A stretch of 20,000 bases of DNA, taken from the IMG/VR virus record IMGVR_UViG_3300009152_000029; one strand, 5' to 3'. Positions 564 through 19,676 of the stretch are shown one piece after another. This DNA comes from an uncultured virus (IMG/VR IMGVR_UViG_3300009152_000029) (lineage: Duplodnaviria > Heunggongvirae > Uroviricota > Caudoviricetes). Position numbers and translations under genes: made by a program. Under the pieces are notes generated by a model. The model was not told where the DNA came from and did not search any database. It saw only the letters and a list, made by a program, of their open reading frames with translations. The first letter of the stretch is position 1, and every line of letters begins with the position of its first letter.

Positions 564-585
564 AGGAATGGTCTTTACCATTCCT
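564..585. repeat. dispersed palindrome copy 1
   Basis: AGGAATGGT-CTTT-ACCATTCCT. Confidence 0.9.
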
Positions 586-661
586 AAAAAAACTTATCAG
601 AAATATTTTTAAACAGGATTAGAGGTAGAGAAAAAAGAAAATCCATATAGAGGAAAAACTT

Positions 662-1411
662 ATGCCGTATGTTTATCAAGCTGGTGTGTTTACAAGTATT
701 GCAATTAATTTGGGATTAGCTGATAAGCAATTTCAAGATGAATTGTTGCTTTTAGCTGGGACTGCTGCTTCATATACCAAGACAACTCGTGACTTAATTA
801 TTGATTCTTGGGATAATAGCAGCACTGACGCAAATACTGATTCTACATTAACACTTTCACAAGCTTTAAGAAGTGCTGAAATTTCTTTGCCATCAACCAT
901 TGATCCTGTATATTCTGGGACTTTAGGAGCTTTGAATTCATATTTCAATGCTGTAGTCGGAGAATCATTCAGAGATTACTTTAATTCAAAAACAACTAGT
1001 AGAACAGTAAATTTCGTACAAACTACACCAACATCAACTGGCACTGGCTTATCAAGCTTTAGAGACATATATAGAAGAACTTACAATAACGAATTGATTT
1101 ACAAGCTGCACGAGAGAAATACTGCTGGAACATTTTCAGGAACATCAGGTACATATGATAATGCTGGTGCTCTTTTAGAAGTAAGAAAATACGGGGCAGC
1201 AAATAGTACTGGAACAATTAGCTTAAGTTGTGTTAGAGCAAATGATGGCGGAAGTGATGCTATTGTTTTATCATACACTGCTGGTATTCTTGTCACATAC
1301 ACAAATGCTGCAAAATTAACAACACTTGACAGACGATACTTATATGTTTCAGGTGTTGCTATAACTGGAATGTCTGGTTCTGGAGCCAGTTTCGAGGTTT
1401 GGACTAGATAA
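662..1411 (+). CDS. hypothetical Ser/Thr/Gly-rich protein, possibly virion structural
   Basis: 249 aa ORF with GAGG SD; composition resembles structural proteins; no family recognised. Confidence 0.8.
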   Translation: MPYVYQAGVFTSIAINLGLADKQFQDELLLLAGTAASYTKTTRDLIIDSWDNSSTDANTDSTLTLSQALRSAEISLPSTIDPVYSGTLGALNSYFNAVVGESFRDYFNSKTTSRTVNFVQTTPTSTGTGLSSFRDIYRRTYNNELIYKLHERNTAGTFSGTSGTYDNAGALLEVRKYGAANSTGTISLSCVRANDGGSDAIVLSYTAGILVTYTNAAKLTTLDRRYLYVSGVAITGMSGSGASFEVWTR

Positions 1412-1431
1412 AATATTTAGTATATTTTAAA

Positions 1432-1453
1432 AGGGATGGTGAATACCATCCCT
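1432..1453. repeat. dispersed palindrome copy 2
   Basis: AGGGATGGT-GAAT-ACCATCCCT. Confidence 0.9.
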
Positions 1454-1493
1454 TTATTTTTTTGTCAAAGAAAAATAAATGTATAGATAGTTC

Positions 1494-1521
1494 TTGAATC
1501 GGCTAACCCTAATGGTATAAT
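1494..1521 (+). promoter_or_regulatory. sigma70-type promoter for tRNA pair
   Basis: TTGAAT-N16-TATAAT with TG extension, 10 nt before tRNA-Leu. Confidence 0.7.
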
Positions 1522-1531
1522 ATTAGCGTAT

Positions 1532-1612
1532 CCTCCGGTGGTGGAACGGTATACACGACGGACTTAAAATCCGTTGGCGCAAGCCTTACGAGTTCGAATC
1601 TCGTCTGGAGGA
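1532..1612 (+). tRNA. tRNA-Leu (TAA)
   Basis: Acceptor CCTCCGG/CTGGAGG, anticodon arm ACGGA-CTTAAAA-TCCGT, long variable arm, TTCGAAT T-loop; CCA not encoded. Confidence 0.93.
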
Positions 1613-1616
1613 TTTT

Positions 1617-1733
1617 GAGAGAGGTTAGACAAAAGAGTAATCTGAGTCTTGTCGTGAAAGAAATTTTTAATGTGAAGTGGGAATTGTGCTCTGGATAACT
1701 AGTCTCCATCACAGGCAACACATAACCTCTTTC
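1617..1733 (+). ncRNA. candidate structured RNA between tRNA-Leu and tRNA-Lys
   Basis: Closing stem GAGAGAGGTTA/TAACCTCTTTC; internal GACAA..TTGTC and ATGTG..CACAT pairings. Confidence 0.4.
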
Positions 1734-1742
1734 TTTTAGTTT

Positions 1743-1814
1743 GGTTCCATAGCTTAACGGTAAAGCAGAATCCTTTTAAGATTTTGAGTGCAGATTCGAC
1801 TTCTGCTGGAGCCA
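1743..1814 (+). tRNA. tRNA-Lys (TTT)
   Basis: Acceptor GGTTCCA/TGGAGCC, D stem GCTT/AAGC, anticodon loop CTTTTAA, T arm GCAGA-TTCGACT-TCTGC. Confidence 0.9.
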
Positions 1815-1847
1815 CTTTTCACTTGTCTTATCTCCACAAGTGAAACC

Positions 1848-1876
1848 AATCCCCTTCTCCGACAAGAAGGGGATTT
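1848..1876 (+). terminator. intrinsic terminator after tRNAs
   Basis: AATCCCCTTCT/AGAAGGGGATT hairpin. Confidence 0.65.
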
Positions 1877-1880
1877 CCTA

Positions 1881-1908
1881 TTGCAGTACATACAACATAT
1901 GATATAAT
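1881..1908 (+). promoter_or_regulatory. sigma70-type promoter, leaderless geometry
   Basis: TTGCAG-N16-TATAAT, ATG follows after 6 nt. Confidence 0.7.
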
Positions 1909-1914
1909 ACAGGT

Positions 1915-2409
1915 ATGGAAAACACTATTATTACCCCAACCTACGAAGTCAATGTTAAGTTTAGTTGGAAATATCCCGGTAAGCCAATTATAAATGTTGA
2001 AAAGCAAGGGTATATCCAAACAACCAATACCGAAGATAAATTGATTGCTGAAGAATATATTAATTCATTTATTGGCAATTATGAGGTTGGTATTTGTGAA
2101 GTGACAGAGATGAATATTCTTTCTCTTAGGAGAGTATTTACCTATGATGAATGGGTTGAGAAATACAAACCATTAAAGAATCAATTCGAGGAAACTAGTT
2201 TCGAGGGATGTTCTTTCGATTACTCTGAAGATGACCAATGGGAATTTGTAAAGAAGCAGAATCCAGAAAACATTTGGACAATGGTTGATTCTGATGATTG
2301 CTTTGTTGTAATCTCTGGATGCCATTGGGTAAATCGAGAAAGTTATTTTGTCACTGAAAAGCCTGTCCAAAAAGAAGACTTGTCAACTGAATTTCTTGTG
2401 ATAGAATAG
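1915..2409 (+). CDS. hypothetical phage protein
   Basis: 164 aa ORF between promoter and terminator. Confidence 0.8.
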   Translation: MENTIITPTYEVNVKFSWKYPGKPIINVEKQGYIQTTNTEDKLIAEEYINSFIGNYEVGICEVTEMNILSLRRVFTYDEWVEKYKPLKNQFEETSFEGCSFDYSEDDQWEFVKKQNPENIWTMVDSDDCFVVISGCHWVNRESYFVTEKPVQKEDLSTEFLVIE

Positions 2410-2442
2410 AGTACACAGAATCCGCTCATAATTCTGTGTTCT

Positions 2443-2479
2443 ATCCCTCTTCTTCGCTCATAGGAAGAGGGATTTTTTT
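2443..2479 (+). terminator. intrinsic terminator
   Basis: ATCCCTCTTC/GAAGAGGGAT stem plus T-tract. Confidence 0.8.
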
Positions 2480-2492
2480 GCAATTATTCTTA

Positions 2493-2514
2493 AGGAATGG
2501 TAAATACCATTCCT
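2493..2514. repeat. dispersed palindrome copy 3
   Basis: AGGAATGGT-AAAT-ACCATTCCT. Confidence 0.9.
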
Positions 2515-2543
2515 AAAAATATTGATCAAATAATTTTTTAAAC

Positions 2544-2572
2544 TTGCATACCCTAAAGATATATCGTATTAT
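2544..2572 (+). promoter_or_regulatory. sigma70-type promoter of R-M operon
   Basis: TTGCAT-N17-TATTAT, then GAGGA SD. Confidence 0.65.
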
Positions 2573-2589
2573 GAATAAGAGGAAGCCAA

Positions 2590-3321
2590 ATGTCTATCGT
2601 TTTAAATAATGAATCTTGTCTTGATTTTTTGCCTCGTGTTGCAGATAAATCAGTAAATCTTGTTTTGATTGACCCACCATATACAATTTCACGAGCAACA
2701 GGATTCGAGAGTTGTGGAGAGAAGGGTGTTGAAAGATTTAAGATGTCCTATGAATTTGGAGAGTGGGATAATGAAATCTTTGTTCTTGATAAGGTTATGG
2801 AAGAATCTTATCGTATCCTCAAGCCAGGTGGAACATTAATTTGTTTCTATGACTTGTGGAAAATCGAGACTCTTAAGAATTGGATTGAGAGTGCCAAGTT
2901 TAAGCAACTCCGGTTTATTGAATGGGTAAAGACAAATCCTGTTCCTATCAATTCGAAGATTAATTATCTCACCAATTCAAGAGAGATAGCCCTTACTGCT
3001 ATCAAAGGAAGTAAACCAACATTTCATTCTCAATATGATAAGGGAATTTATGAGTTTGCAATCTGTCATGAGAGAGACCGTTTCCATCCTACTCAAAAGC
3101 CTCTCAATTTACTGCAAGCTTTAATTACCAAACACTCCAATGAAGGCGATACTGTTTTGGATTGTTTTGCTGGCTCTGCTTCTTGTGCAGTGGCTTGCTA
3201 TAACACTGGACGAAACTTTATGGGTTGTGAATTGGATGAAACTTATTACACAAAAGCAACAGAGAGAATCGCTAAATTAAATGACAAAAGTACAAATGTT
3301 TCTTCAAGCGTCACAACCTGA
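2590..3321 (+). CDS. DNA methyltransferase, N6-adenine/N4-cytosine beta class
   Basis: DPPY (motif IV) N-terminal, HPTQKP, VLDCFAGSAS (motif I) C-terminal. Confidence 0.93.
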   Translation: MSIVLNNESCLDFLPRVADKSVNLVLIDPPYTISRATGFESCGEKGVERFKMSYEFGEWDNEIFVLDKVMEESYRILKPGGTLICFYDLWKIETLKNWIESAKFKQLRFIEWVKTNPVPINSKINYLTNSREIALTAIKGSKPTFHSQYDKGIYEFAICHERDRFHPTQKPLNLLQALITKHSNEGDTVLDCFAGSASCAVACYNTGRNFMGCELDETYYTKATERIAKLNDKSTNVSSSVTT

Positions 3322-3877
3322 TAGTGATGGTAAAACTCGTCTTTGGCTATATAGTGAATTGGAAACTTTATATCCCGGCGTAGAATTCCAAACTAAAAAT
3401 GGTGGAGATTGGAACCGCTCTGATGGACAATTAAAAGATTTCATTGTTCATAGAGAAAAAGATAAAAATCGCACTATAGGAATTCGTCTTGATGGTTATA
3501 GAGAAACATCAATTGAAAAACGTATACGAACTGATATTTTCAAATCAATAAGAAAACAAAGATGCCGTGTTGTTGATGTTGGTGGAGAAAATATCGAGTG
3601 TGACCATAAAGACGGACGATATAGTTCTGATACTTATAATAGCGTAGAAAATCAAAATGAAGATGATTTTCAGCCATTATTGAGGAACGTAAATTTATCA
3701 AAGAGAACTCATTGTAAGACGTGTGAGGAAACAAATGAAAGATACGATGCAAAAAGGCTTGGTTATTCATTTGGATGGATTGTTGGAGAGTCTAATTATG
3801 CAGGCACTTGTGTTGGATGCTATTGGTATGACCCTAGGCAATTTAATAAAGTAATCTCCAAAGATTATAAACCTTGA
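3281..3877 (+). CDS. IceA1/NlaIII-family HNH restriction endonuclease
   Basis: Motifs FL..QP..G, NGGxWxR, IRLxGY, IEcDHKDGR, DDFQxL, KRxxCKxC, CVGCYxYDP as recalled for H. pylori IceA1; overlaps the MTase 3' end. Confidence 0.8.
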   Translation: MTKVQMFLQASQPDSDGKTRLWLYSELETLYPGVEFQTKNGGDWNRSDGQLKDFIVHREKDKNRTIGIRLDGYRETSIEKRIRTDIFKSIRKQRCRVVDVGGENIECDHKDGRYSSDTYNSVENQNEDDFQPLLRNVNLSKRTHCKTCEETNERYDAKRLGYSFGWIVGESNYAGTCVGCYWYDPRQFNKVISKDYKP

Positions 3878-3907
3878 CAATAGTGTTTTCTTAATGTACA
3901 CTTGTAT

Positions 3908-4138
3908 ATGAAACACGTATTATATGAAGTCACAGATGATTTTGACATTATCATCAAATTGACTTTTGAAAATTACAGTTATCTCAATGCCTTTATCGAA
4001 CAACATACTAAAGAAAAAAAGTATGAGCCAAAATTTCTAGTTCTTGAAATTAATGATGAGGGTGATATTGATTTCATTAGAACATATAATGGAACCAAAG
4101 AAGTTTCCAAAAAACTTGTTGTGGACTACATAGATTAA
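3908..4138 (+). CDS. hypothetical protein (leaderless)
   Basis: TTGACA(3874)-N17-TACACT then ATG at 3908. Confidence 0.7.
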   Translation: MKHVLYEVTDDFDIIIKLTFENYSYLNAFIEQHTKEKKYEPKFLVLEINDEGDIDFIRTYNGTKEVSKKLVVDYID

Positions 4139-4276
4139 TGATATGCTATATTTGTTCAAGGTGATTACAGCATCAAGAACAAACTCAGAATGTGGTGATT
4201 CTGGAAAAATGTGAGAAGAGTGGAAATAACATGGTTCGTATGCCCGTTACATTCTTCTCACATCTTGGGTAATATT

Positions 4277-4534
4277 ATGAACGACATTCTTCTAAAAGTA
4301 GATTTTCCAGTAAAACCACAAACCCTTTATCTATATAAGGGTAAATATAAGGTTATTAAAGATGAATTTTTAGAAGGAGTGAATGTCATTAGAACTTATA
4401 AATGCTCCGAAGGTTATTTCAGTTATACTTCTATATGGCATCCAGGTTTTCAGTACCATTATGAAATAGAAACCGAAAAATGTAAATCAAGATTCTTTGA
4501 GGGCGAATGGTTTGAAATTATTGATGGTGGATAG
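4277..4534 (+). CDS. hypothetical protein
   Basis: Part of ORF 4211..4534; ATG 4277 preferred, start uncertain. Confidence 0.55.
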   Translation: MNDILLKVDFPVKPQTLYLYKGKYKVIKDEFLEGVNVIRTYKCSEGYFSYTSIWHPGFQYHYEIETEKCKSRFFEGEWFEIIDGG

Positions 4535-4589
4535 CTTAAATAAAGCAGAGGAATAAACCTTTGATATGGGTGTAAGTCCCATTCCACCT
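4526..4589 (+). ncRNA. degenerate tRNA-like cloverleaf (pseudo-tRNA or tRNA mimic)
   Basis: GGTGGA/TCCACC acceptor, TA-GCTT..AAGC D arm, AGAGG-AATAAA-CCTTT arm, ATGGG-TGTAAGT-CCCAT T arm. Confidence 0.55.
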
Positions 4590-4593
4590 TTTG

Positions 4594-4666
4594 GGGCGAT
4601 TAGCTTAATGGTTAAAGCAGGGGACTCATAATCCCTTGAGTGGGGGTTCGAGTCCCTCATCGCCCA
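4594..4666 (+). tRNA. tRNA with CAT anticodon (likely Ile2, else elongator Met)
   Basis: Acceptor GGGCGAT/ATCGCCC (1:72 paired, so not initiator), GGGGA-CTCATAA-TCCCT, TTCGAGT T-loop. Confidence 0.9.
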
Positions 4667-4704
4667 TTGTTTCTGGTTGGTTGGTGTTTTGCATGTCCTA
4701 CTCC

Positions 4705-4738
4705 TCCCCTCATTGAAATATATGAGGGGATTTTTTTT
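4705..4738 (+). terminator. intrinsic terminator
   Basis: TCCCCTCAT/ATGAGGGGA plus T8. Confidence 0.8.
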
Positions 4739-4782
4739 GACACTGCTATAACTTTATGATATATTGTTTGTAGAGAAATATT

Positions 4783-4974: not shown

Positions 4975-4984
4975 TTTACCTATT

Positions 4985-5071: not shown

Positions 5072-5095
5072 TATTCCATAAATAAATAAAACACT

Positions 5096-5471: not shown

Positions 5472-5493
5472 AGGCATTGAGTATACAATGCCT
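5472..5493. repeat. dispersed palindrome copy 4
   Basis: AGGCATTGA-GTAT-ACAATGCCT (one inner mismatch). Confidence 0.8.
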
Positions 5494-5920: not shown

Positions 5921-5973
5921 ACAATTAGGATACACAATGAAGTGTATCCTAAAATTTTTTGTCAATAAGCTCT

Positions 5974-5995
5974 AGGAATGGTAATTACCATTCCT
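5974..5995. repeat. dispersed palindrome copy 5
   Basis: AGGAATGGT-AATT-ACCATTCCT. Confidence 0.9.
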
Positions 5996-6121
5996 GAAAT
6001 TTTTATGCAAATAAAAAATATATTCTAAAATATATAGCATAGTTTGTTGACAACATATAGTAGTTAGGTTATACTACTGGTGTAAGAACAACATAGTTAG
6101 TTCTTAGTTGAGAGAAGCCAA

Positions 6122-6662: not shown

Positions 6663-6683
6663 AGGCATTGTAGTACAATGCCT
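6663..6683. repeat. dispersed palindrome copy 6
   Basis: AGGCATTGT-AGT-ACAATGCCT with perfect TTGACA/TGTCAA at 9 bp on both sides. Confidence 0.9.
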
Positions 6684-6957: not shown

Positions 6958-7094
6958 AAAGGTTTACTCTTAACATTTTTAGTAATAAGAAACTAGTTTG
7001 GTTCTCACGGAGTAAAAAAAGAAAAATTTCTGTTTTTACCATCCAGATGTTGATAGGTATATTGCCCTTAAGTCAATAATCTAGCAGGCCAACA

Positions 7095-7127
7095 AATATC
7101 CCTCTTTTCAGTAAGAGGGATATTTTT
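7095..7127 (+). terminator. intrinsic terminator
   Basis: AAATATCCCTCTT/AAGAGGGATATTT. Confidence 0.7.
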
Positions 7128-7178
7128 ATTTGACAACTCCCAATATATGCGTTATTATATACACATAAGGAGAGCGAT

Positions 7179-7892: not shown

Positions 7893-7914
7893 AGGTGTGG
7901 TAAAGACCACACCT
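7893..7914. repeat. dispersed palindrome copy 7
   Basis: AGGTGTGGT-AAAG-ACCACACCT, after terminator hairpin near 7836-7878. Confidence 0.9.
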
Positions 7915-9483: not shown

Positions 9484-9516
9484 AAGCCCCCTCCTTCGGG
9501 AGGGGGCTTTTTTTTT
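9484..9516 (+). terminator. intrinsic terminator
   Basis: AAGCCCCCTCC-TTCG-GGAGGGGGCTT plus T-tract. Confidence 0.9.
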
Positions 9517-9556: not shown

Positions 9557-9578
9557 AGGTATGGTGACCACCATACCT
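9557..9578. repeat. dispersed palindrome copy 8
   Basis: AGGTATGGT-GACC-ACCATACCT. Confidence 0.9.
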
Positions 9579-9643
9579 GTAAAATCTTTGCAATATTTTT
9601 TTCTCTTGAAATTTCATCATATAACAGATATAATATGTCTGTT

Positions 9644-10934: not shown

Positions 10935-10997
10935 GCTTGGTCATCTTCTTTTTTGAGTATAAATAGAATTGATAGGCCAAAACAAACTAGAGTACCT

Positions 10998-11306
10998 ATG
11001 ATACTGAAAAATGCCATTTTTGAGCCCTCCCATACAATGAAAGAAATAGTAACAGCAATTTATCAAAATGGAGAGTTTACAGATAATAATATCTTAAAAC
11101 CTCATTTGACAGATAGAATTGGAATTAGAATGAAGTTTCCCGAAGGCGCTGGATGTATCTTATGGACTAACGGGAAGAAATACTATGCAGTTTGCGAAGC
11201 GTTTGGAACAGTCTTCACTATTAATATTCCACGTAACATAGGTGATGACATTTGGGATAGATTTAAAACATACTATGAAGGAAATTATTCTTACAAACCA
11301 TTCTAG
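10998..11306 (+). CDS. hypothetical protein
   Basis: Part of ORF 10953..11306; TATAAATA at 10958 upstream of ATG 10998. Confidence 0.65.
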   Translation: MILKNAIFEPSHTMKEIVTAIYQNGEFTDNNILKPHLTDRIGIRMKFPEGAGCILWTNGKKYYAVCEAFGTVFTINIPRNIGDDIWDRFKTYYEGNYSYKPF

Positions 11307-11326
11307 GGATGATAAATATCATCCCT
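11305..11326. repeat. dispersed palindrome copy 9
   Basis: AGGGATGAT-AAAT-ATCATCCCT, overlapping the stop codon. Confidence 0.85.
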
Positions 11327-11751: not shown

Positions 11752-11803
11752 TTGTGCAAAAGAGGGCTAAAAAGCCCTCTTTTTTTTGTTGAAAATAAAC
11801 TTA

Positions 11804-11825
11804 AGGAATGGTAAATACCATTCCT
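11804..11825. repeat. dispersed palindrome copy 10
   Basis: AGGAATGGT-AAAT-ACCATTCCT. Confidence 0.9.
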
Positions 11826-11903
11826 TAAAAAACTTGTCAAATATATTTATTTTCTTGACATCTATACAATATGTGTTATACTATTCGTGTAAGGAGTTAG
11901 GAT

Positions 11904-12425: not shown

Positions 12426-12455
12426 ATAAATCCCAAGAAAAATCTTGGGATTTAT
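12426..12455. terminator. TCCCAAGA-family bidirectional terminator
   Basis: ATAAATCCCAAGA-AAAA-TCTTGGGATTTAT. Confidence 0.75.
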
Positions 12456-12459: not shown

Positions 12460-12480
12460 AGGTGTGTAAATCACACACCT
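12460..12480. repeat. dispersed palindrome copy 11
   Basis: AGGTGTGT-AAATC-ACACACCT. Confidence 0.8.
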
Positions 12481-12539
12481 GTAAAAATTTGTCAAATAAA
12501 AATATATCCCTTGACTTTCGTCAAGGGATATGATATAGG

Positions 12540-12905: not shown

Positions 12906-12974
12906 ACCTGTAATATATCATCTGTATTATATGATTGCAAGAAAATTCTCATCTAAAAATAGTTTAAATAGTTC

Positions 12975-13003: not shown

Positions 13004-13009
13004 ATTGGT

Positions 13010-13278
13010 GTGGGTCAGTATCCGCATTACAGTAAAAGACCAGAACGGCTAGAATCTATTGCGAGATTCAAACAAGGGTAGCAACCTTGGAGTGGTTAAG
13101 TCCACAATCTTTTACTGAAACCTTGGAGATGGTTGACGCAAACAATCTATCCAAGTGTAATGATTTGTGGTTGGGTGCTATGCTCCTTTTAGGACACGGG
13201 CATCATCGTAGGCAGAGACCATCGAAAGAACTGCCCTTGTGTTACGTACTGGTTGAAATCCAGCTAGCCACAAATCCA
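13010..13278 (+). ncRNA. candidate ~270 nt structured ncRNA with tRNA-like 3' domain
   Basis: Own promoter and terminator, no credible ORF, GC-richer than flanks, many nested stems. Confidence 0.7.
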
Positions 13279-13315
13279 AATAAATCCTCTAAGAATTTTC
13301 TTGAGGGTTTATTCT

Positions 13316-13336
13316 AGTTATGGTAATACCATAACT
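13316..13336. repeat. dispersed palindrome copy 12
   Basis: AGTTATGGT-AAT-ACCATAACT. Confidence 0.85.
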
Positions 13337-13838: not shown

Positions 13839-13872
13839 AAATAAATCCCAAGAATTTTCTTGGGATTTATTT
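13839..13872. terminator. TCCCAAGA-family bidirectional terminator
   Basis: AAATAAATCCCAAGAA/TTCTTGGGATTTATTT. Confidence 0.75.
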
Positions 13873-13874: not shown

Positions 13875-13896
13875 AGGGATGGTACTTACCATCCCT
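13875..13896. repeat. dispersed palindrome copy 13
   Basis: AGGGATGGT-ACTT-ACCATCCCT between convergent genes. Confidence 0.9.
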
Positions 13897-14139
13897 TTAT
13901 TTTTTCCTCAACTTTTTTTCTTTCACTGGCTTGACACAATTTACTGTTGCAGCTTCTCCACCTACTTTGATTTCGTTTGGTAGTGGATTTTCTTTAATCA
14001 TCACAGATTTCTTACAATCAGCACATTCCAAGGCATAACAATCATTTCCCAGAATAAGCCAATTTTTCACATTATGCCCACGAGAAAGGACTGTATTCTT
14101 TGTCTCTTCCATCAAACCGAGTATGCTAAATATTCCCAT
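13897..14139 (-). CDS. hypothetical zinc-ribbon-like protein (leaderless)
   Basis: RGH..W...CADC...C motif; minus-strand TG-A-TATAAT-N6-ATG. Confidence 0.7.
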   Translation of the reverse strand: MGIFSILGLMEETKNTVLSRGHNVKNWLILGNDCYALECADCKKSVMIKENPLPNEIKVGGEAATVNCVKPVKEKKLRKK

Positions 14140-14912: not shown

Positions 14913-14917
14913 ATAAT

Positions 14918-14945
14918 AAATCCCAAGAGAATTCTTGGGATTTTT
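14918..14945. terminator. TCCCAAGA-family terminator
   Basis: AAATCCCAAGA-GAAT-TCTTGGGATTT. Confidence 0.75.
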
Positions 14946-14960: not shown

Positions 14961-14982
14961 AGGTATGGTAAATGCCATACCT
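14961..14982. repeat. dispersed palindrome copy 14
   Basis: AGGTATGGT-AAAT-GCCATACCT (T-G at inner pair). Confidence 0.85.
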
Positions 14983-15014
14983 TAAAAAATTTGTCAAATA
15001 AAAAAACAGGGTTT

Positions 15015-15158: not shown

Positions 15159-15532
15159 ATTGTTCCTTCCAAGAAATTGAAATCGCTGATGACTGGCGGG
15201 CAATAATCATCAGGTTGCTTGAATGCACCAAGATATTGCTTATACTTATATTGAAACTTGTCAGCTTTGGTGATTAGCACAGGATACACAGTCATAACGT
15301 AACCTAACGAATTGATTGCAATTTCCATTCTTTTGTGATTCACTACAGTCTCAAATGTCATTGAATAGACATCCCTCTTAAGGGTGCGATACAGAAACTT
15401 TGATTCTAGTGGAAGAAAATCTACTAAAGGCAAATCTCTTTCAATCGTACGTAATTCAGCGTGTTCCGTGTAAGTTAGTAACTTGTCAAACCAATAAAGT
15501 GGGTTTTCCCATTCTGTGTTGTAGCAAACCAT
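15155..15532 (-). CDS. hypothetical protein
   Basis: Minus-strand TTGAAT(15588)-N17-TATAAT, SD AGGA. Confidence 0.8.
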   Translation of the reverse strand: MVCYNTEWENPLYWFDKLLTYTEHAELRTIERDLPLVDFLPLESKFLYRTLKRDVYSMTFETVVNHKRMEIAINSLGYVMTVYPVLITKADKFQYKYKQYLGAFKQPDDYCPPVISDFNFLEGTI

Positions 15533-15653
15533 CGTCCTATACCCTTCAATTGATAAGGTATTATATCGTGTGACACCTGAGTATTCAAATTAAATAATAC
15601 TTGACACGTCATATACTACTTGATATACTCTCTTTGTAAGTAAGGAGGTAGTT

Positions 15654-15926
15654 ATGAGAACTACAAGGAATTCGGATAGGCTTCGTGAGATTTTGTTTTG
15701 TACACGCAATCAGATTGTTTCTCTCAAGGACATTCAGATGGATATGATGCGTATCGACAGTAAAGTGGCAAATCAAATCGCAACACAAATATCTGCTCTT
15801 GAGGAAGTTTACAAGCACCAACTATCGCTTGTCACACAGGCAGAGAATGTAGAGCCAAAGCGTGAAGGTTGGCTTTCTGGTCACTTCAAAACCAAAGAAG
15901 ACCGATTAGCCAACATCATGGATTAA
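15654..15926 (+). CDS. hypothetical protein
   Basis: TTGACA(15601)-N17-TATACT, SD AAGGAGG. Confidence 0.85.
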   Translation: MRTTRNSDRLREILFCTRNQIVSLKDIQMDMMRIDSKVANQIATQISALEEVYKHQLSLVTQAENVEPKREGWLSGHFKTKEDRLANIMD

Positions 15927-16000
15927 ATAAATACCCCAGAGATGGGGTATTTTTCTTGACATTATATATACAATCTGGTATATTTACTGTGGAGGTTGTT

Positions 16001-16150
16001 ATGAAGAACTTGTATGCTAAGAAGTGCTGTTGGTGCAAAGTAGTGGTTCAGCCAGGTCAAGGTAAGTGCTGGAGCTACAATGATAAATGGTGGGTTGGAT
16101 GCCAGAGTTGTTTGGATGATAAGTTCAAAGATGAAGACAAGGAGGCTTAG
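16001..16150 (+). CDS. small CxxC..CxxC zinc-finger-like protein
   Basis: TTGACA(15956)-N17-TATATT, SD GGAGG, CCWC...CQSC. Confidence 0.75.
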   Translation: MKNLYAKKCCWCKVVVQPGQGKCWSYNDKWWVGCQSCLDDKFKDEDKEA

Positions 16151-16178
16151 GCCTCCTATTTTTTTGACATTTTACTTA

Positions 16179-16200
16179 AGGCACGGTATTTACCGTGCCT
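16179..16200. repeat. dispersed palindrome copy 15
   Basis: AGGCACGGT-ATTT-ACCGTGCCT with perfect TTGACA/TGTCAA at 9 bp on both sides. Confidence 0.9.
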
Positions 16201-16278
16201 ATAAATTTTTGTCAAATATATTTTTTAAATTTGCATCTTATATAATTTGTGTTATACTATTGGTGTAAGGAGTTTGAT

Positions 16279-16611
16279 ATGAGAGATTTTATGACCCTTG
16301 GACCAGTTCCATTTGAAGAAGAATGCATCCAAGTTAGCCCAGAAGTTGACTACACTGAAATGCGTAATGAAGTTTTCAAGTTTGTCAACCTTTTAAAAGA
16401 ACGGTTTGTTAACATCCCTGAAAACGCTTATTTTGGTATCAAGCGTGAAAGCCATGACTTCGGTACTTACTTTGAAGCGGCTGTTTATTGGGATACTGAA
16501 GACACTGATTCCCAAACGTTTGCATTCTTTGTAGAATCAAACTTACCAGCACATTGGAGTGACGATGCAAAAATTGACTGGTCAGCTGAATATGTAACTG
16601 CTGGCGAATAA
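16279..16611 (+). CDS. hypothetical protein (HDFGTY motif)
   Basis: TTGCAT(16231)-N16-TATACT, SD AAGGAG. Confidence 0.85.
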   Translation: MRDFMTLGPVPFEEECIQVSPEVDYTEMRNEVFKFVNLLKERFVNIPENAYFGIKRESHDFGTYFEAAVYWDTEDTDSQTFAFFVESNLPAHWSDDAKIDWSAEYVTAGE

Positions 16612-16650
16612 ACTAAAAGAATCCCAAGAAAAATCTTGGGATTTATCTTT

Positions 16651-16671
16651 AGTTATGGTATTACCATAACT
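16651..16671. repeat. dispersed palindrome copy 16
   Basis: AGTTATGGT-ATT-ACCATAACT after TCCCAAGA terminator 16620-16643. Confidence 0.85.
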
Positions 16672-16764
16672 TCAAAATTTTATCAAAAAAAATTTTTACT
16701 CAAAATTAATCATATGTACGATGTGATATACTACAGGATGTAACAACAACAGAAAGGTTTCTCT

Positions 16765-17046
16765 ATGAAAAAAATTCTTTTTAACACCAACTATACCAAC
16801 TATACCAATGAAGAGGTAAATATTATTCAAGACACATTGAAGAAAAAAAGTGTTATAATGACTAAATTTACACAGGTAGAAATTGCAGAGATGATGGGAG
16901 TCAAACAGCCACAAGTAAGTAACTGGCTTAATGGTAAGAGAATTCCTACAGCATCTAATTTAGTTAAGTTAGCAGATATATTAGAAGAATACCCTGAAGA
17001 ATTATTAAATAAATTAGAAGTTATTAAGCAAGAGAATAATTTTTGA
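16765..17046 (+). CDS. XRE/Cro-C1 family HTH transcriptional regulator
   Basis: TQVEIAEMMGVKQPQVSNWLNGKRIPTASNLVKLADIL. Confidence 0.88.
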   Translation: MKKILFNTNYTNYTNEEVNIIQDTLKKKSVIMTKFTQVEIAEMMGVKQPQVSNWLNGKRIPTASNLVKLADILEEYPEELLNKLEVIKQENNF

Positions 17047-17115
17047 ATAATGCCCCAGTAAAAATGGGGCAAAAATTCTTATTGACAAGTATATGATAGA
17101 TGATATACTTACTCT

Positions 17116-17337
17116 ATGAAACTTGAACAGGTATTGCCAATGCTCCGTGATGGTAAGACTATCACAAGAAGCAAAAAGTGGAATCCTAATTCTACTAATG
17201 TTATCTTGGTAAAACTAGAAGAATCAGAACTTAAATTTAAATGTGTTTGGTCTACTGGTGAAGAAATGAGTTTTTGGGCTTGTTATACTTTAAAGACTGA
17301 AGATGTATTGGCAGAAGATTGGGAGGTAGCAGGATGA
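17116..17337 (+). CDS. DUF2829/Tad2-like protein (leaderless)
   Basis: L..GK.ITR..WN N-terminus and DVLAEDWEV C-terminus; TTGACA(17082)-N16-TATACT-N6-ATG. Confidence 0.7.
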   Translation: MKLEQVLPMLRDGKTITRSKKWNPNSTNVILVKLEESELKFKCVWSTGEEMSFWACYTLKTEDVLAEDWEVAG

Positions 17338-17654
17338 CAGAAGAGATTATTAATAGAACAATACAGGTTTTTCTTTACACTGGTGGCATTGTTGCTTTTT
17401 GGCAGATTACAAAGCATATGCCTAAAGCACTATATACATTGCTTGAGTGTATAACAGTTATGACGTGTAGCGTTTTGTTGCTCACGCCATTTTCTATGAT
17501 TATTGAATACATCTTGGGTGGCAACATTGACACCACAATGATGTTTGTAGCAGGTCTTGCTACAGTTAGTTTGTTGTCTACTATGTGGATGGTTATGGTA
17601 CAATCATCAAGAGAGTTACAAGGAAAGAAGCAATACAAATATGTTGTTCTCTAA
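17334..17654 (+). CDS. membrane protein (about 3 TM segments)
   Basis: Hydrophobic stretches; ATGA overlap, SD GGAGG. Confidence 0.75.
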   Translation: MTEEIINRTIQVFLYTGGIVAFWQITKHMPKALYTLLECITVMTCSVLLLTPFSMIIEYILGGNIDTTMMFVAGLATVSLLSTMWMVMVQSSRELQGKKQYKYVVL

Positions 17655-17985
17655 GAACGGTTTTAAGAGCGTTGACACTACCGAAGAGTTTGTAAAGCAA
17701 GCGATAGAATTTGGTCAAAAAGACATAGTCTTAAGTGTAGCACATGGCAATGGTGTTATTGATATAGTCATAAGTCCAACAATGGATGCTATAGAAGCAG
17801 ATGTATACCATTTTCTCAATGATGACACAGAATTGAAATATTCTATGCCAATCAAAACCCTCACTGATAATAACATATCATCTTTGGCTTTGACTAGTGC
17901 AATTCATGCATACTTGTCTGAAGCGTTCAAAGTAGCTGAAATGTTCCGAAGCACTACCAGACAAAGCACTGACTACGCAAAGTAA
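17641..17985 (+). CDS. hypothetical protein
   Basis: Part of ORF 17557..17985 from ATG 17641; terminator 17992-18016. Confidence 0.7.
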   Translation: MLFSKNGFKSVDTTEEFVKQAIEFGQKDIVLSVAHGNGVIDIVISPTMDAIEADVYHFLNDDTELKYSMPIKTLTDNNISSLALTSAIHAYLSEAFKVAEMFRSTTRQSTDYAK

Positions 17986-18032
17986 AAAAAGTTCCCCAGA
18001 AATGGGGAATTTTTTTATTGTGAACTATCTTA

Positions 18033-18054
18033 AGGTACGGTAAATACCGTACCT
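18033..18054. repeat. dispersed palindrome copy 17
   Basis: AGGTACGGT-AAAT-ACCGTACCT. Confidence 0.9.
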
Positions 18055-18131
18055 ATAAAATTTTGTCAAATATTTAAAATATATTGCACAATATATACAG
18101 CCTGATATAATCATAGTGTAAGGAGTTAGTT

Positions 18132-18509
18132 ATGAACATTGTAGCATTGGTAAACATTGAGCGTATTCTTGAAGAAGTACGCAACAACATCAGAGGCTTT
18201 TATATTTCTATAGAGGGTGATATCAAGGAACGTGAATTTGACAAAGTTATAGATGGCAACCAGTACTTTGATATTGACAAAATCAAGTCAGATGCTAACT
18301 ACGATTACTTTGAAATCGCATACACAGGTGATGAATCCGTGATTTTCATTTGTGATGAAGAAGGACAGCTTAAAACAAAGTTCAAGGATGATGTAGAGAT
18401 TGGTAACTATAACATGATAGCAAGTGCAATTTACCAAAAACTTTGTAAGAGAGATAATGTGCATTTGTTTGGTGATGTTGTAATTTGCCATACATCAAGG
18501 GTTTATTAA
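18132..18509 (+). CDS. DUF3846-like phage protein
   Basis: ICDEEGQLK...N..AS...LFGDVVI motif; TTGCAC(18084)-N16-TATAAT, SD AAGGAG. Confidence 0.7.
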   Translation: MNIVALVNIERILEEVRNNIRGFYISIEGDIKEREFDKVIDGNQYFDIDKIKSDANYDYFEIAYTGDESVIFICDEEGQLKTKFKDDVEIGNYNMIASAIYQKLCKRDNVHLFGDVVICHTSRVY

Positions 18510-18578
18510 CGTATAATAAACTTGGGCTTGCATTACTTCCAAAAAAAACCTCAGGAATTTTTCTTGAGGTTTTTTTAT

Positions 18579-18600
18579 AGGAATGGTAAATACCATTCCT
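18579..18600. repeat. dispersed palindrome copy 18
   Basis: AGGAATGGT-AAAT-ACCATTCCT between convergent genes. Confidence 0.9.
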
Positions 18601-18653
18601 TACGAATATTGTTAAATAAAAATATCCCTTGACTTTTGTCAAGGGATATGATA

Positions 18654-18857
18654 TCACCATTCGATATCGCCTCCACCGTAGTCTTCATCAGTTCCCCAGC
18701 CTGCTGATGCCAAAGCGTTTGCATCAGCCCATTGGTCATCACAATCTGGTTCATTGTCGAACTGTTCATCCAGTTCCTCATCCGTCATATAATCCATTGG
18801 GTCAACATCAACGCTAGGAAAAATTCTTGCTTCCAACTCCGCTTCAATATAATCCAT
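18654..18857 (-). CDS. small, highly acidic protein
   Basis: Minus-strand TTGACA(18908)-N17-TATACT, SD AAGGAG; ALASAGWGTDEDYG motif. Confidence 0.8.
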   Translation of the reverse strand: MDYIEAELEARIFPSVDVDPMDYMTDEELDEQFDNEPDCDDQWADANALASAGWGTDEDYGGGDIEW

Positions 18858-18965
18858 TGTTCTAACTCCTTACTGCTTAAGTATAACACTTATTATATAG
18901 GGTGTCAAGAACTATTTTTAAAAGATATATCTTGCATCCTATACACAAGATGATATACTATTGCT

Positions 18966-19166
18966 ATGAACACTACAGACAAGGTAATCGTAAAATTCAA
19001 GAGCCGTGTGCCAAAGATGCTCTACACTGCACACTACAATGGAATCCTTCTTGCATCAGGACGTGACCCAATCGACTTGGGCGAGTACTATGCATCCAAG
19101 TACTGCACAGAATGGATTCTGTGCGATGGCAATAACTTTTACACGCAAAGAGGAGTTAATAAGTAA
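18966..19166 (+). CDS. hypothetical protein (leaderless)
   Basis: TTGCAT(18932)-N16-TATACT-N6-ATG. Confidence 0.75.
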   Translation: MNTTDKVIVKFKSRVPKMLYTAHYNGILLASGRDPIDLGEYYASKYCTEWILCDGNNFYTQRGVNK

Positions 19167-19405
19167 TGGCGCATTATTACTTGAACAATGGTGGTACACG
19201 TTGGGTAACTGACAGCAAGATTCAAGTCGTTGGAATTCATAATGGTAAACGATACAGCAAGATGCGCAAACCATTATTCTGGGAACAATTTGGAAACTTT
19301 GTACGTTGTTATGTTCGTGTTGGCGATAATGTTTACCGTGGTGCTACCGAAGACAACAATGGTGTGATAGAATTAAGACTAGACAAGAGTTACAGACTTA
19401 AATGA
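19166..19405 (+). CDS. hypothetical protein
   Basis: TAATG coupling, SD AGGAG. Confidence 0.75.
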   Translation: MAHYYLNNGGTRWVTDSKIQVVGIHNGKRYSKMRKPLFWEQFGNFVRCYVRVGDNVYRGATEDNNGVIELRLDKSYRLK

Positions 19406-19620
19406 ACAATTACAGGCAAAAGGCTCTCTCTCTTTGGTCGGCTTTGCTGGCTGAAGAGAGATGGCATAAGTTTGAAAGCACCAATTGTAAACCATCATGT
19501 AAAGGGTGGAATGGTTGGGCACCTTATTGCGAGTGTTTTGAGAATTTTTGCACATTCGTTCCTCAAGGTGATATTGAAGATATGGAATTGGTTATTAAAA
19601 CAAGACCATTAACTTTCTGA
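19402..19620 (+). CDS. hypothetical Cys-rich protein
   Basis: ATGA coupling; C..SC.GW.G...CEC motif. Confidence 0.7.
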   Translation: MNNYRQKALSLWSALLAEERWHKFESTNCKPSCKGWNGWAPYCECFENFCTFVPQGDIEDMELVIKTRPLTF

Positions 19621-19655
19621 AAAGATTGCAAGATTTTTTTCTTGCAAATTTTTTC

Positions 19656-19676
19656 AGTTATGGTTATACCATAACT
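19656..19676. repeat. dispersed palindrome copy 19
   Basis: AGTTATGGT-TAT-ACCATAACT between two terminators of convergent genes. Confidence 0.85.

Follow-up and report, generated by a model that had tools for sequence, protein, structure and literature searches.

What do the short palindromes that recur behind gene ends in this phage DNA do, and are they read as DNA or as RNA? The window, the whole 20,000-nt stretch analyzed, derives from an uncultivated 358-kb freshwater (lake) jumbo phage. A first-pass annotation had listed 19 copies of a palindrome, here termed PAL, and proposed that it is a structural DNA element delimiting gene cassettes, perhaps a site of recombination or nicking.

Distribution and layout of the palindrome

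All 19 copies were recovered with the left-arm variants as listed, each perfect over arms of at least 8 bp (Table 1). A family pattern (21–23 nt beginning with AG[GT] and having perfect 8-bp arms) matched the window 19 times, against a mean of 0.03 and a maximum of 1 in 200 dinucleotide-preserving shuffles. The genome-wide mapping that had been proposed was performed with a covariance model built from 65 distinct copies. It recovered 27 genome copies, all within 154,263–180,796, and one weak match at 182,374, where a GC-rich perfect palindrome replaces PAL at the orthologous place. The model matched only 3 genome tiles (144–200 kb) and left the remaining 17 empty, with no PAL in the other 330 kb of this AT-rich, terminator-rich genome. 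The 27-kb PAL-bearing region consists of small early genes, each unit separately transcribed, and we term it a hyperplastic early region. The same element was found in 17 related viral contigs, with mirrored copies in 17 of the 24 IMG/VR contigs retrieved by a degenerate pattern (1–18 per contig). Among species-representative prokaryote genomes, it occurs only in two short phage-like contigs within MAGs.

Table 1. Copies of PAL in the window and parts of the reference junction (copies given as left arm-loop-right arm)
Feature	Position	Strand	Description
Copy 1	564..585	+	AGGAATGGT-cttt-ACCATTCCT; tandem junction; terminator 519-542 precedes
Copy 2	1432..1453	+	AGGGATGGT-gaat-ACCATCCCT, then T-run; sole terminator-like hairpin after ORF 662-1411
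Copy 3	2493..2514	+	AGGAATGGT-aaat-ACCATTCCT; terminator 2443-2473 precedes
Copy 4	5472..5493	+	AGGCATTG-agtata-CAATGCCT; position 9 unpaired (A opposite A)
Copy 5	5974..5995	+	AGGAATGGT-aatt-ACCATTCCT; terminator 5925-5952 precedes
Copy 6	6663..6683	+	AGGCATTGT-agt-ACAATGCCT; 21 nt; TTGACA/TGTCAA boxes on both sides
Copy 7	7893..7914	+	AGGTGTGGT-aaag-ACCACACCT
Copy 8	9557..9578	+	AGGTATGGT-gacc-ACCATACCT; terminator 9484-9509 precedes
Copy 9	11305..11326	+	AGGGATGAT-aaat-ATCATCCCT, then T-run; overlaps stop codon of ORF 10953-11306
Copy 10 (reference junction)	11804..11825	+	AGGAATGGT-aaat-ACCATTCCT; DNA hairpin -10.5 kcal/mol, z -5.6
Reference junction, intrinsic terminator of upstream gene	11758..11783	+	
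Reference junction, left box	11789..11795	+	TTG(N)CAA-like (TTGAAAA); TTG 12 nt before PAL
Reference junction, right box	11834..11843	+	TTGTCAAATA; 8 nt after PAL
Reference junction, sigma-70-type promoter of next gene	11855..11882	+	TTGACA-16-TATACT; TG before second hexamer
Copy 11	12460..12480	.	AGGTGTGT-aaatc-ACACACCT; convergent gap, flanked by terminators 12430-12451 and 12504-12531
Copy 12	13316..13336	+	AGTTATGGT-aat-ACCATAACT
Copy 13	13875..13896	.	AGGGATGGT-actt-ACCATCCCT; convergent gap; abuts stop of ORF 13897-14139 (-); no right box
Copy 14	14961..14982	.	AGGTATGGT-aaat-GCCATACCT; T·G at position 9; convergent gap
Copy 15	16179..16200	+	AGGCACGGT-attt-ACCGTGCCT
Copy 16	16651..16671	+	AGTTATGGT-att-ACCATAACT
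Copy 17	18033..18054	+	AGGTACGGT-aaat-ACCGTACCT
Copy 18	18579..18600	.	AGGAATGGT-aaat-ACCATTCCT; convergent gap
Copy 19	19656..19676	-	AGTTATGGT-tat-ACCATAACT; convergent gap; box TTTGCAAG on minus-strand side

The whole element spans about 52 bp and is two-fold symmetric: TTG(N)CAA, 8–9 nt, AGGNNYGGT, loop, ACCRNNCCT, 8 nt, TTG(N)CAA. Its core is a 9-bp stem closed by an A/T-rich loop of 3–5 nt. The pairs at the foot (A·T, G·C, G·C) and at the top (G·C, G·C, T·A) are invariant, and the three middle pairs vary. On the left, PAL is flanked by a T-run and a TTG(N)CAA box 8–9 nt away, and on the right by a TTGTCAAATA box 8 nt away. These conserved flanks are additions to the first-pass annotation, as is the right-hand box of the copy at 19656, which lies on the opposite side in keeping with the reversed gene direction there. 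A right-side TTG(N)CAA is present in 18 of the 27 genome copies. The outer TTG/CAA positions are conserved in 54–63 of the 65 distinct copies, without covariation.

As originally described, all 19 window copies sit behind a gene 3′ end, 17 of them after a separate hairpin. At the two exceptions, 1432 and 11305, PAL and its T-run form the only terminator-like structure after the gene. The five copies in convergent gaps lie between two inward-facing terminators, and none of the four divergent gaps (near 12950, 14170, 15590 and 18920) contains PAL, again as first reported. Tandem junctions, in which transcription should cover one strand only, hold 22 of the 27 genome copies. Nearly all of the small early units are followed by PAL, and the units that it delimits comprise 1–6 genes each, in line with the proposed cassettes. 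Four terminator–promoter junctions of the same region (4705–4742, 7094–7135, 15930–15961 and 17050–17087) are without PAL, which is therefore not required for cassette autonomy. At these junctions the −35 hexamer directly follows the terminator, and the left box of PAL looks like that hexamer.

Pairing constraint and loop orientation

The mirrored arm changes seen in the window hold across the family. Among the 65 distinct copies, 99.0% of core cells are Watson–Crick paired, and two-sided changes occur at six of nine stem pairs (54 cells), giving a score reached by none of 500 shuffles. Sixty-five of 71 candidate copies are perfect over all nine pairs and five are mismatched at position 9 only, the position of the two loop-adjacent mismatches noted earlier in copies 4 and 14. 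One row (L043:832) was excluded as unrelated. G·T pairs are absent from stem positions 1–8. At the middle three positions, the observed base frequencies predict that about 0.21 of copies would match if the arms were independent, and 65 of 65 do. Pairing stops abruptly at the stem foot, with flanks 54% paired versus 99% for the core. Arm changes are also fully compensated at orthologous junctions of relatives; the core differs in 12 of 22 pairs orthologous on both flanks, and pairing is still perfect.

The terminator hairpins that immediately precede PAL copies served as an internal control (n = 59, with 8 short hairpins excluded). Of their 729 pairs, 21 are G·U, spread over 18 hairpins, and seven hairpins carry internal unpaired bases. 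Mismatches in neighboring palindromes are therefore tolerated rather than erased.

PAL might instead function as an RNA hairpin, transcribed after terminator read-through and serving as a fail-safe terminator, a 3′-end protection or a processing signal. A T-rich 3′ spacer (five or more T among the first 8 nt past the stem) follows 6 of the 27 genome copies and 10 of the 65 distinct copies, and the replacement of PAL by another perfect palindrome at 182,374 fits such a role. These six copies look like ordinary intrinsic terminators, and two of them are the only such hairpin for their gene; at least some use of PAL is therefore at the RNA level. As a general account, however, an RNA hairpin is unlikely. 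The 3′ spacer is A-rich in 13 of 27 genome and 39 of 65 distinct copies, and the usual context in both directions is T-tract, hairpin, A-tract, the reverse of a terminator. On this account the hairpin would be usable from both directions, which would itself exclude G·U pairs. Stem positions 1–8 lack them, however, even though 22 of the 27 genome copies are in tandem junctions, and the upstream terminators do have them. The PAL core is also far better conserved than the adjoining terminators, with at least ten different terminator sequences in the window preceding one common AGG..GGT core. Finally, loop orientation is unconstrained. The two orientations are about equally frequent (n = 60; AAAT 16, ATTT 13, AAAA 5, TTTT 4), the loop flips in seven pairs of copies that share their arms and have left flanks of 85% identity or more, and loops reverse between orthologous copies.

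Cassette shuffling and the junction

Relatives shuffle gene units at PAL junctions. Homologous junction pairs share the upstream flank only (63), the downstream flank only (59) or both (22), with crossovers on either side of PAL. The block 165,901–166,353 adjoins the block 159,655–160,647 in several relatives. Joints in lake-metagenome contigs link different PAL junctions (11787>18016, 18015>16177, 18070>12500, 12480>11834, 5454>5973 and 6018>6641), although these could be chimeras created by assembly across repeats, and others map to the promoter, outside PAL (11866>18103 and 13371>18940).

Such shuffling would suit a recombinase or nickase site that captures, excises and rearranges cassettes, as in attC, REP/RAYT and HUH systems, and relaxase and HUH nick sites have a similar layout of hairpin, 8 nt and conserved box. 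We nevertheless consider it quite unlikely that PAL is the crossover or nicking point envisaged in the first-pass annotation. Identical PAL arms were found in 10 of the 22 pairs homologous on both flanks, in 20 of the 63 sharing the upstream flank only, in 13 of the 59 sharing the downstream flank only and in 461 of 4134 sharing neither. Linkage to the two flanks is weak and about equal, whereas an attC site moves together with its gene. None of the 65 distinct copies has chimeric arms, so there is no sign of a central crossover between unlike copies. The 270 collinear junction comparisons contained no empty site (269 full-length junctions and one with another palindrome), and an indel present in two metagenomes (17120–17374) is away from any PAL. 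Profile searches of the 89%-complete genome found neither a tyrosine or serine recombinase nor a Y1/HUH transposase (Phage_integrase, Resolvase and Y1_Tnp, which were detected in 14, 12 and 6 of 14 positive-control genomes). Pfam and PHROGs scans likewise found no recombinase or transposase candidates, and a phage RNA polymerase was not found. Relatives thus shuffle units at the junctions, but the crossovers lie to both sides of PAL, and nothing singles out PAL as the point of crossover or nicking. Ordinary homologous recombination across the whole conserved junction of about 100 bp explains the shuffling equally well. This route has been proposed for the promoter-early stem-loop (PeSL) cassettes of T4-type phages, which PAL junctions resemble, and we suggest it here.

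PAL could also be a duplex operator, bound as B-DNA by a dimeric phage regulator that represses or boosts early promoters; one candidate regulator is the HTH_3 protein encoded in the region (16765–17043). Mirrored changes would then be a by-product of template-switch correction of quasi-palindromes, and template switching would presumably yield loop flips. As a 22-bp dyad whose outer and inner triplets are conserved and which has many copies in an early region, PAL has features typical of a phage operator or stoperator (PMC9283540). In about 10 of the 27 genome copies, a constant 21 nt separates the right box from the −35 hexamer. In other copies, however, the promoter is 30–60 nt further off, the five convergent-gap copies have no promoter behind them, and the promoters of the divergent gaps and of the four PAL-less tandem junctions do without the element. 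Correction of unread middle positions by mutation bias alone predicts equally clean terminators, contrary to the control, and independently evolving arms do not account for the complete match at the middle positions. A simple operator is therefore rather improbable. A selfish or neutral MITE-like repeat, spread through terminator–promoter junctions without function for the phage, is highly improbable: the quasi-palindromic unit has box-like ends and its left box would suit insertion at a post-terminator −35 hexamer, but the collinear comparisons show no presence/absence polymorphism, no transposase was found in the genome, pairing stays perfect while the core turns over, and the rest of the genome is free of the element.

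A proposed DNA-level boundary signal

Because pairing is Watson–Crick-strict on both strands, loops flip and the context is symmetric, PAL is best described as a structure-dependent DNA element, which upholds the earlier preference for such an element over a simple operator. Together, these results indicate an element of two-fold symmetry that operates at the level of DNA and relies on its sequence as well as its structure. PAL most likely acts on DNA rather than RNA, and neither an RNA hairpin nor a plain operator fits as well. The evidence points to a hairpin signal in DNA of a so far undescribed kind, with a putative reader. The earlier interpretation thus stands for a covarying structural element at cassette boundaries and not for a recombination or nicking site.

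We tentatively propose that, within PeSL-like junctions, PAL serves as a boundary or insulator signal that works in both directions. An extruded hairpin or cruciform, or a symmetric duplex, would be read by a putative two-fold symmetric factor contacting the invariant foot and top pairs, while pairing alone would suffice at the middle three. Bound PAL would stop polymerases that arrive from either side after reading through a terminator and would shield the next sigma-70 promoter, making each unit an autonomous cassette. The frequent reshuffling of units among relatives would come about by homologous recombination anywhere in the terminator–PAL–box–promoter junction, with no crossover inside PAL.

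Two properties of DNA count against extrusion. Arms of 9 bp are short for spontaneous cruciform formation, and under the twin-domain model the convergent gaps, which hold five window copies, should gain positive supercoils that disfavor it. The spacing from terminator stem to PAL falls into several classes (0 to 34 nt), and one fixed roadblock geometry therefore fits poorly. A precedent for a DNA hairpin with both kinds of stem position is provided by phage N4, whose early promoters extrude in vivo as small DNA hairpins; some of their stem bases are conserved and read, whereas others vary and are constrained only to pair (PMC4496689). At contig level, where terminator and PAL are not separable, RNA depth is 97.9 and 64.3 ahead of the 13316 junction and drops to 1.3 and 0 beyond it.

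Distribution and pairing of the palindrome

All 19 copies of the palindrome (PAL) that the first-pass annotation located in the window are present there as perfect inverted repeats, with arms of 8–9 bp and loops of 3–6 nt. When the window was shuffled 200 times with dinucleotides preserved, the family pattern turned up 0.03 times on average and once at most, against the 19 copies present, and perfect palindromes of 21–23 nt with 8-bp arms of any sequence number 43 in the window compared with 1.7 expected from shuffling. A regular-expression scan of the genome returned 40 candidates; 27 belong to the family, all between 154,263 and 180,796, and the other 13 are unrelated sequences elsewhere. 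A covariance model made from 65 distinct copies, the genome-wide mapping suggested earlier as a check, recovered the same 27 places and one weak match at 182,374, with no match in the 17 tiles covering the remaining genome. As defined by the flanking boxes, copies from 154,263 to 158,053 are oriented one way and the others the opposite way, both matching gene direction, and near 158 kb the two blocks run toward each other. At the PAL region, the GC skew has no switch of the kind expected at an origin or terminus.

Outside this genome, a degenerate pattern scan of IMG/VR found 48 loci on 24 contigs, 17 of which carry mirrored PAL copies (1–18 distinct each), the remaining seven being chance matches. 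Among 185,579 species-representative prokaryote genomes, PAL was found only on two short phage-like contigs, L070 and L073 (4.3 and 2.5 kb), binned into MAGs, and their host assignment is therefore unreliable. The other three of the five prokaryote pattern hits were set aside as chance: contig L071 is mirrored but GC-rich and without the family flanks, while L069 and L072 are unmirrored. PAL belongs to the phage lineage rather than to a host. No Rfam family matched the PAL copies and a literature search found no description of the motif; a sub-threshold His_leader match at window 18536–18654 (37.6 bits against a cut-off of 49), spanning terminator and PAL, was taken as chance.

The PAL core is composed of A1 G2 G3 N4 N5 Y6 G7 G8 T9, a loop of usually four A/T-rich nucleotides, and the exact complement. 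The left flank, which played no part in selecting copies, has a T-run with a G behind it at −12 (52 of 60 copies), giving TTG at −14 to −12, and has CTT(A/T) at −3 to 0; the consensus flanks are CTT(A/T) and (T/A)AAA. On the right, an 8-nt spacer precedes TTGTCAAATA. The right TTG(N)CAA is found in 18 of the 27 genome copies, and most others are degenerate, for example TGATCAAATA or TATGCAAATA. TTG(N)CAA is a small dyad in its own right, which makes the unit as a whole two-fold symmetric across about 52 bp.

Seventy-one distinct candidates were gathered from the genome and its relatives and one unrelated sequence was dropped; 65 of the 71 are complementary at all nine positions, and five mismatch solely at the loop-closing position. 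Positions 1–8 are free of G·T pairs. In the 65-copy alignment, 99.0% of core cells are paired without bulges, six of the nine pairs change on both sides (54 cells), and only pair 9 has a one-sided change, a single U·G. The observed covariation exceeded that of all 500 column shuffles. Pairs 1–3 and 7–9 are invariant or nearly so and pairs 4–6 are variable and fully compensated, the arms matching at positions 4–6 in 65 of 65 copies against roughly a fifth expected under independent base draws (arithmetic from base counts). Beyond the stem foot pairing falls off sharply, to 54% of cells over 15 positions per side; this value, with no consistent covariation there, ruled out an extended hairpin through the flanks. 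As single-stranded DNA, the PAL hairpins fold at −7.8 to −12 kcal/mol (z-scores −2.7 to −7). At 27 genome places and in many related lake phages, the evolution of the family shows selection to keep the arms perfectly paired on both DNA strands. The identical AGG..GGT core follows at least 10 different terminator sequences in the window alone, so PAL is not simply co-duplicated with terminators. The sequence of PAL is probably read as well as its structure. PAL is a well-supported, structure-constrained DNA motif family with a putative reader and function.

Junction layout and the level at which PAL acts

PAL lies behind the 3′ ends of transcription units; of the window copies, 14 occupy tandem gaps and five convergent ones, and the four divergent gaps have none. 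The units it bounds hold 1–6 genes and include divergent gene pairs flanked by a PAL on both outer sides. A typical tandem junction runs from the upstream gene through an intrinsic terminator, the left box, PAL, the right box, about 15 AT-rich nucleotides, a near-consensus sigma-70 promoter and the ribosome-binding site AAGGAG to the next gene. Convergent gaps hold a single PAL between two inward-facing terminators, each with a T-run and box behind. At four terminator–promoter junctions without PAL, the T-run leads straight into a −35 TTGACA, which the left box of PAL junctions resembles; PAL is thus not required at every junction. Two terminator families (see table) recur in relatives, many members having the A-tract and T-tract flanks of a bidirectional design.

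T9, the loop and A14 together are spaced exactly 17 bp from either box, and TG stands at positions 6–7 in about 78% of copies. A face-to-face pair of sigma-70 promoters would fit this geometry, both in the 17-bp spacing and in the TG, but −7 is an invariant A (58 of 60 copies). In intergenic DNA outside the region, 8-mer enrichment gave only TATAAT-like words and no PAL-like motif, so PAL has no link to phage sigma factors. The distance from the terminator stem to PAL varies from 0 to 34 nt and falls into several classes, which gives no support to a roadblock set at a constant distance.

Terminator hairpins directly upstream of PALs served as an internal control (59 hairpins, defined by folding; eight short ones were omitted), since they share molecules and replication machinery with PAL and have similar arm and loop lengths. 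G·U is found in 18 of the 59 (21 of 729 pairs) and unpaired bases in seven, compared with none in 520 pairs of PAL. RNA-level constraint here therefore tolerates wobble, and the imperfection of these neighbors indicates that palindrome-correcting template switching is too slow to yield the perfection of PAL by mutation bias alone. Loops and their reverse complements are about equally frequent (AAAT 16, ATTT 13; AAAA 5, TTTT 4; n = 60), and loop orientation switches between copies whose arms are identical and whose left flanks are nearly so (genome 154,263 versus contig L047; 155,580 versus contig L040). The typical flanks read T-tract, hairpin, A-tract from both directions, the reverse of a terminator. 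Together, the terminator control, the flipping loops and the symmetric context argue for action at the level of DNA and on both strands.

That PAL is instead an intrinsic terminator, a GC-containing hairpin directly before a T-run, holds for six of the 27 genome copies, which have a T-rich spacer and the look of ordinary terminators, compared with 13 that have an A-rich spacer. Two of these six, the PALs at window 1432 and 11305, are the sole terminator-like structure behind their genes. RNA-level use is real in a minority of copies. RNA-contig depth across the junction at 13316 drops from 97.9 and 64.3 to 1.3 and 0 (contig level); RNA contigs of the two metatranscriptomes are small gene-body pieces, none of those listed spanning a PAL, and are uninformative either way.

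The RNA upstream of this junction, on the plus strand, is probably an abundant non-coding RNA. Its depth in the two metatranscriptomes compares with at most 8 in neighboring bins, adapter-bearing loose ends occur at 13021 and 13046, and the minimum free energy is −100 kcal/mol (z −4.7). The segment matches no Rfam family, and the 76-aa TTG-start ORF that overlaps it has no Pfam match.

Positions of features in the window and the genome; L numbers in brackets are pieces of the genome
Feature	Coordinates	Strand
Near-consensus sigma-70 promoters after PAL junctions	window 11855–11882, 6047–6075, 9606–9634	
Terminator family ATCCCAAGA..TCTTGGGAT	window 12430–12451, 13845–13866, 14918–14943, 16619–16644, 19681–19711	
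Terminator family TCCCTTGAC..GTCAAGGGA	window 12504–12531, 18622–18649	
−35 TTGACA at terminator–promoter junctions without PAL	window 4737, 7130, 15956, 17082	
Probable non-coding RNA	window 13008–13312	plus
Overlapping 76-aa ORF	window 13087–13317	
DNA methylase and IceA genes	window 2590–3874	plus
HTH_3 gene, then Tad2-like gene	window 16765–17334	plus
Fifth tRNA-like sequence	window 4525–4590	plus
Population replacement	window 17120–17374	
Locus of the 40-bp perfect palindrome	genome 182,374–182,427 (L011:2374–2427)	minus
Four sigma-70-family factor genes and NusG-like gene	genome 64302–64865, 68634–69314, 203372–203908, 219958–220524, 209948–210478 (L004, L012, L013)	
ART-PolyVal protein	genome 139862–140944 (L008:13862–14944)	
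Pilin-like protein	genome 142190–143083 (L008:16190–17083)	
Laminin_G_3 array	genome 257015–261772 (L015:5015–9772)	minus

Junction shuffling and comparison with known elements

Relatives are strongly mosaic in synteny, with shuffling at the junctions and an ORFan-rich region, as in PeSLs. We compared 93 distinct junctions pairwise. The PAL arms are identical in 10 of the 22 pairs in which both flanks are homologous, in 20 of 63 with the upstream flank alone homologous, in 13 of 59 with the downstream flank alone homologous, and in 461 of 4134 with neither. Crossovers therefore occur on both sides of PAL, and the core is also altered in place, as in AGGGATGAT versus AGGTATGGT behind the same gene and in AGGTACGGT versus AGGCACGGT. 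None of the 65 copies combines arms of two differing types. The junction is full-length in 269 of 270 collinear comparisons; in the exceptional one, another perfect palindrome, CTTAAG-CCGGGG-ATTT-CCCCGG-CTTAAG, has the same place and the same right box. This palindrome, at the weakly matching genome site 182,374, is perfect over 40 bp (arms of 18 bp), and a junction with PAL on contig L024 is its orthologous counterpart; its inner part is CCGGGG-ATTT-CCCCGG, its outer CTTAAG is common to extended PALs, and the same TTGTCAA box and a promoter follow.

Joints in metagenome contigs, which may be assembly chimeras at repeats, adjoin PAL in some cases (11787>18016, 18015>16177, 18070>12500 and 12480>11834) and lie in promoters in others (11866>18103 and 13371>18940). 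The joints 18015>16177 and 18070>12500 run backward and are compatible with mini-circles or duplications, or may be assembly artefacts. In two lake metagenome runs, a 253-bp stretch away from any PAL gives way to 35 other letters, and most of the Tad2-like gene is therefore missing from some population variants.

A recombination or nicking site for cassette capture had been proposed, and the search for its enzyme came back empty: integrase, resolvase and Y1 transposase are not detectable in the 89%-complete genome, with positive controls responding. The Y1 (RAYT) transposase model PF01797 gave no match (E up to 0.01; control positive in six of 14 genomes), and the IntI-type tyrosine recombinase model PF00589 gave none (control positive in 14 of 14). 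PeSL-type homologous recombination across a conserved junction fits better than a PAL-specific enzyme, although recombination might be limited to identical PAL types.

Of the analogies drawn in the first-pass annotation, the one to PeSLs holds for the junction, and those to attC and REP/RAYT fail on defining features. In T4-type phages (PMC2839356, PMC4122927), a PeSL junction combines a terminator stem-loop with an AT-rich stretch and a strong sigma-70 promoter; PeSLs border the ORFan genes of a hyperplastic region, the flanked units are shuffled, lost and gained among relatives, and crossovers occur in varying parts of the junction. The PAL junctions share the composite build, ORFan flanking, hyperplastic setting, unit shuffling and scattered crossovers, and have a strong sigma-70-like promoter with 15 AT-rich nucleotides between right box and −35. 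The PeSL stem-loop, however, is the terminator itself, whereas PAL is a separate, extra palindrome between a canonical terminator and the promoter, with a fixed core, strict both-strand pairing and its own flanking boxes, and is also present in promoterless convergent gaps. The junctions qualify as PeSL-like, and the palindrome is an added component foreign to PeSLs. PeSLs are the known means for large lytic phages to keep and swap accessory genes, to which PAL adds a further element. The PAL-delimited region carries anti-defence and host-takeover candidates, namely a Tad2-like protein, a methylase with an IceA-like nuclease, and tRNAs, so that PAL marks where such genes are exchanged in nature.

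We tentatively take PAL to be a bidirectional boundary or insulator signal acting on DNA, a function inferred from the features described here. The first-pass annotation had proposed a structure-recognised hairpin or cruciform, and phage N4 offers a parallel. Its early promoter is a small DNA hairpin in duplex phage DNA, extruded in vivo, and experiments showed that the conserved stem bases are contacted while the variable ones need only maintain the hairpin (PMC4496689); for hairpins this short, extrusion has been demonstrated at physiological supercoiling. PAL is N4-like in having invariant pairs of the read type at foot and top and middle pairs that vary yet stay paired. The three N4 promoters sit at one end of the genome and have a GC-rich loop region, and N4 has a virion RNA polymerase of 3500 aa (PMC4496689), whereas PAL has 27 copies and A/T-rich, freely flipping loops, and a phage RNA polymerase was not detected. 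None of the ORFs scanned matched an RNA polymerase family in PHROGs or Pfam, and a regular-expression search of large ORFs for catalytic motifs gave nothing convincing; a search with PF00940 had no match and a silent control, and is uninformative. The 3478-aa ORF, similar in size to the N4 enzyme, is a PKD/RCC1 repeat protein.

It appears rather improbable that PAL is an N4-kind DNA hairpin or cruciform, at about 27 copies per genome of a phage using host RNA polymerase, that is read by a new structure-specific protein or by sigma-70 holoenzyme and sets cassette boundaries or switches the early region through supercoiling. The holoenzyme is suggested as reader because TTG(N)CAA stands at exactly 17 bp from the loop on either side, with TG at the extended −10. 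If true, it would be the first case in a virus of multi-copy control based on cruciforms. Should the hairpin be read as DNA, short cruciforms would serve as control or boundary signals in general, beyond a curiosity of phage N4, and PAL would be a clean, portable module for insulated gene cassettes.

The stoperators of cluster A mycobacteriophages (PMC9283540) are many copies of one short intergenic site at which one bound protein halts elongating polymerases. PAL is likewise one short site in many copies spread over phage intergenic spaces. Stoperators are asymmetric 13-bp sites for the monomeric immunity repressor of temperate phages, without an intrastrand pairing constraint (PMC9283540). 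Operators of a dimeric repressor should drift independently where uncontacted, and pairs 4–6 have no mismatches in 65 copies. Stoperator and operator thus both fail on independent drift, as N4 fails on its RNA polymerase.

REP/BIME elements are placed after gene 3′ ends and between convergent genes. They are short (20–40 bp) extragenic palindromes in many copies with compensated stem changes (PMC3733652, PMC2817692), and PAL shares the multi-copy palindromes, the compensation and the placement. PAL differs in its perfect stem, its confinement to a single 27-kb phage region, its position mostly outside predicted transcripts and the lack of a RAYT. The REP GTAG/CGTC tag, sought on either strand within 8 nt of the PAL end, occurs in seven of 65 copies and is unconserved; the REP analogy thus fails on tag and RAYT. 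Integron attC sites, one behind each cassette, are structured, co-varying palindromes whose ends are conserved and whose middle varies while staying paired, but they are 57–141 bp long, imperfect, strand-specific and dependent on IntI, with extrahelical bases and promoterless cassettes, whereas PAL is 99% paired without bulges, its loops flip, its cassettes carry their own promoters and no IntI was detected.

The phage and its gene content

The window is the reverse strand of 157,729–177,728 in one 358,269-bp viral record, which is linear, has 33.7% G+C and a CheckV completeness of 89%. The record encodes a portal, large terminase, DnaE-like polymerase, DnaB-like helicase, primase domains, UvsX-like recombinase, topoisomerase II subunits, rIIA/rIIB, GroEL, four sigma-70-family factors and a NusG-like protein. 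Megablast, blastn and tblastn (one window protein) found no near relative in the phage collection, and the top matches of the DnaE-like polymerase are less than 36% identical; the synteny analysis therefore rests on IMG/VR fragments. Near-identical DNA is present in freshwater and lake metagenomes. The source is an uncultivated freshwater jumbo phage, and it appears to rely on host RNA polymerase. The four sigma-70-family factors are ECF-like and, together with the NusG-like gene, suggest a sigma cascade acting on host RNA polymerase, plus a phage elongation factor.

For 34 of the 43 window proteins there is no Pfam match at E up to 0.01. Within the phage early region, the overlapping genes for an N6/N4 DNA methylase and IceA (NlaIII-like endonuclease family) are a restriction-modification-like pair, and a Cro/C1-type HTH_3 gene precedes the Tad2-like (Thoeris anti-defence) gene. 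An additional, fifth tRNA-like sequence lies directly ahead of tRNA-Met; it has no ARAGORN call and scores 36.1 bits with the Rfam tRNA model (cut-off 29). Elsewhere in the genome are a protein with an ART-PolyVal ADP-ribosyltransferase domain and a pilin-like protein with an N-terminal methylation motif and DUF1559. This domain is typical of Planctomycetota and Verrucomicrobiota, and is a possible hint to the host. Seven paralogous Laminin_G_3 (concanavalin-like lectin) genes of about 220–250 aa form a tandem array adjoining large structural genes.
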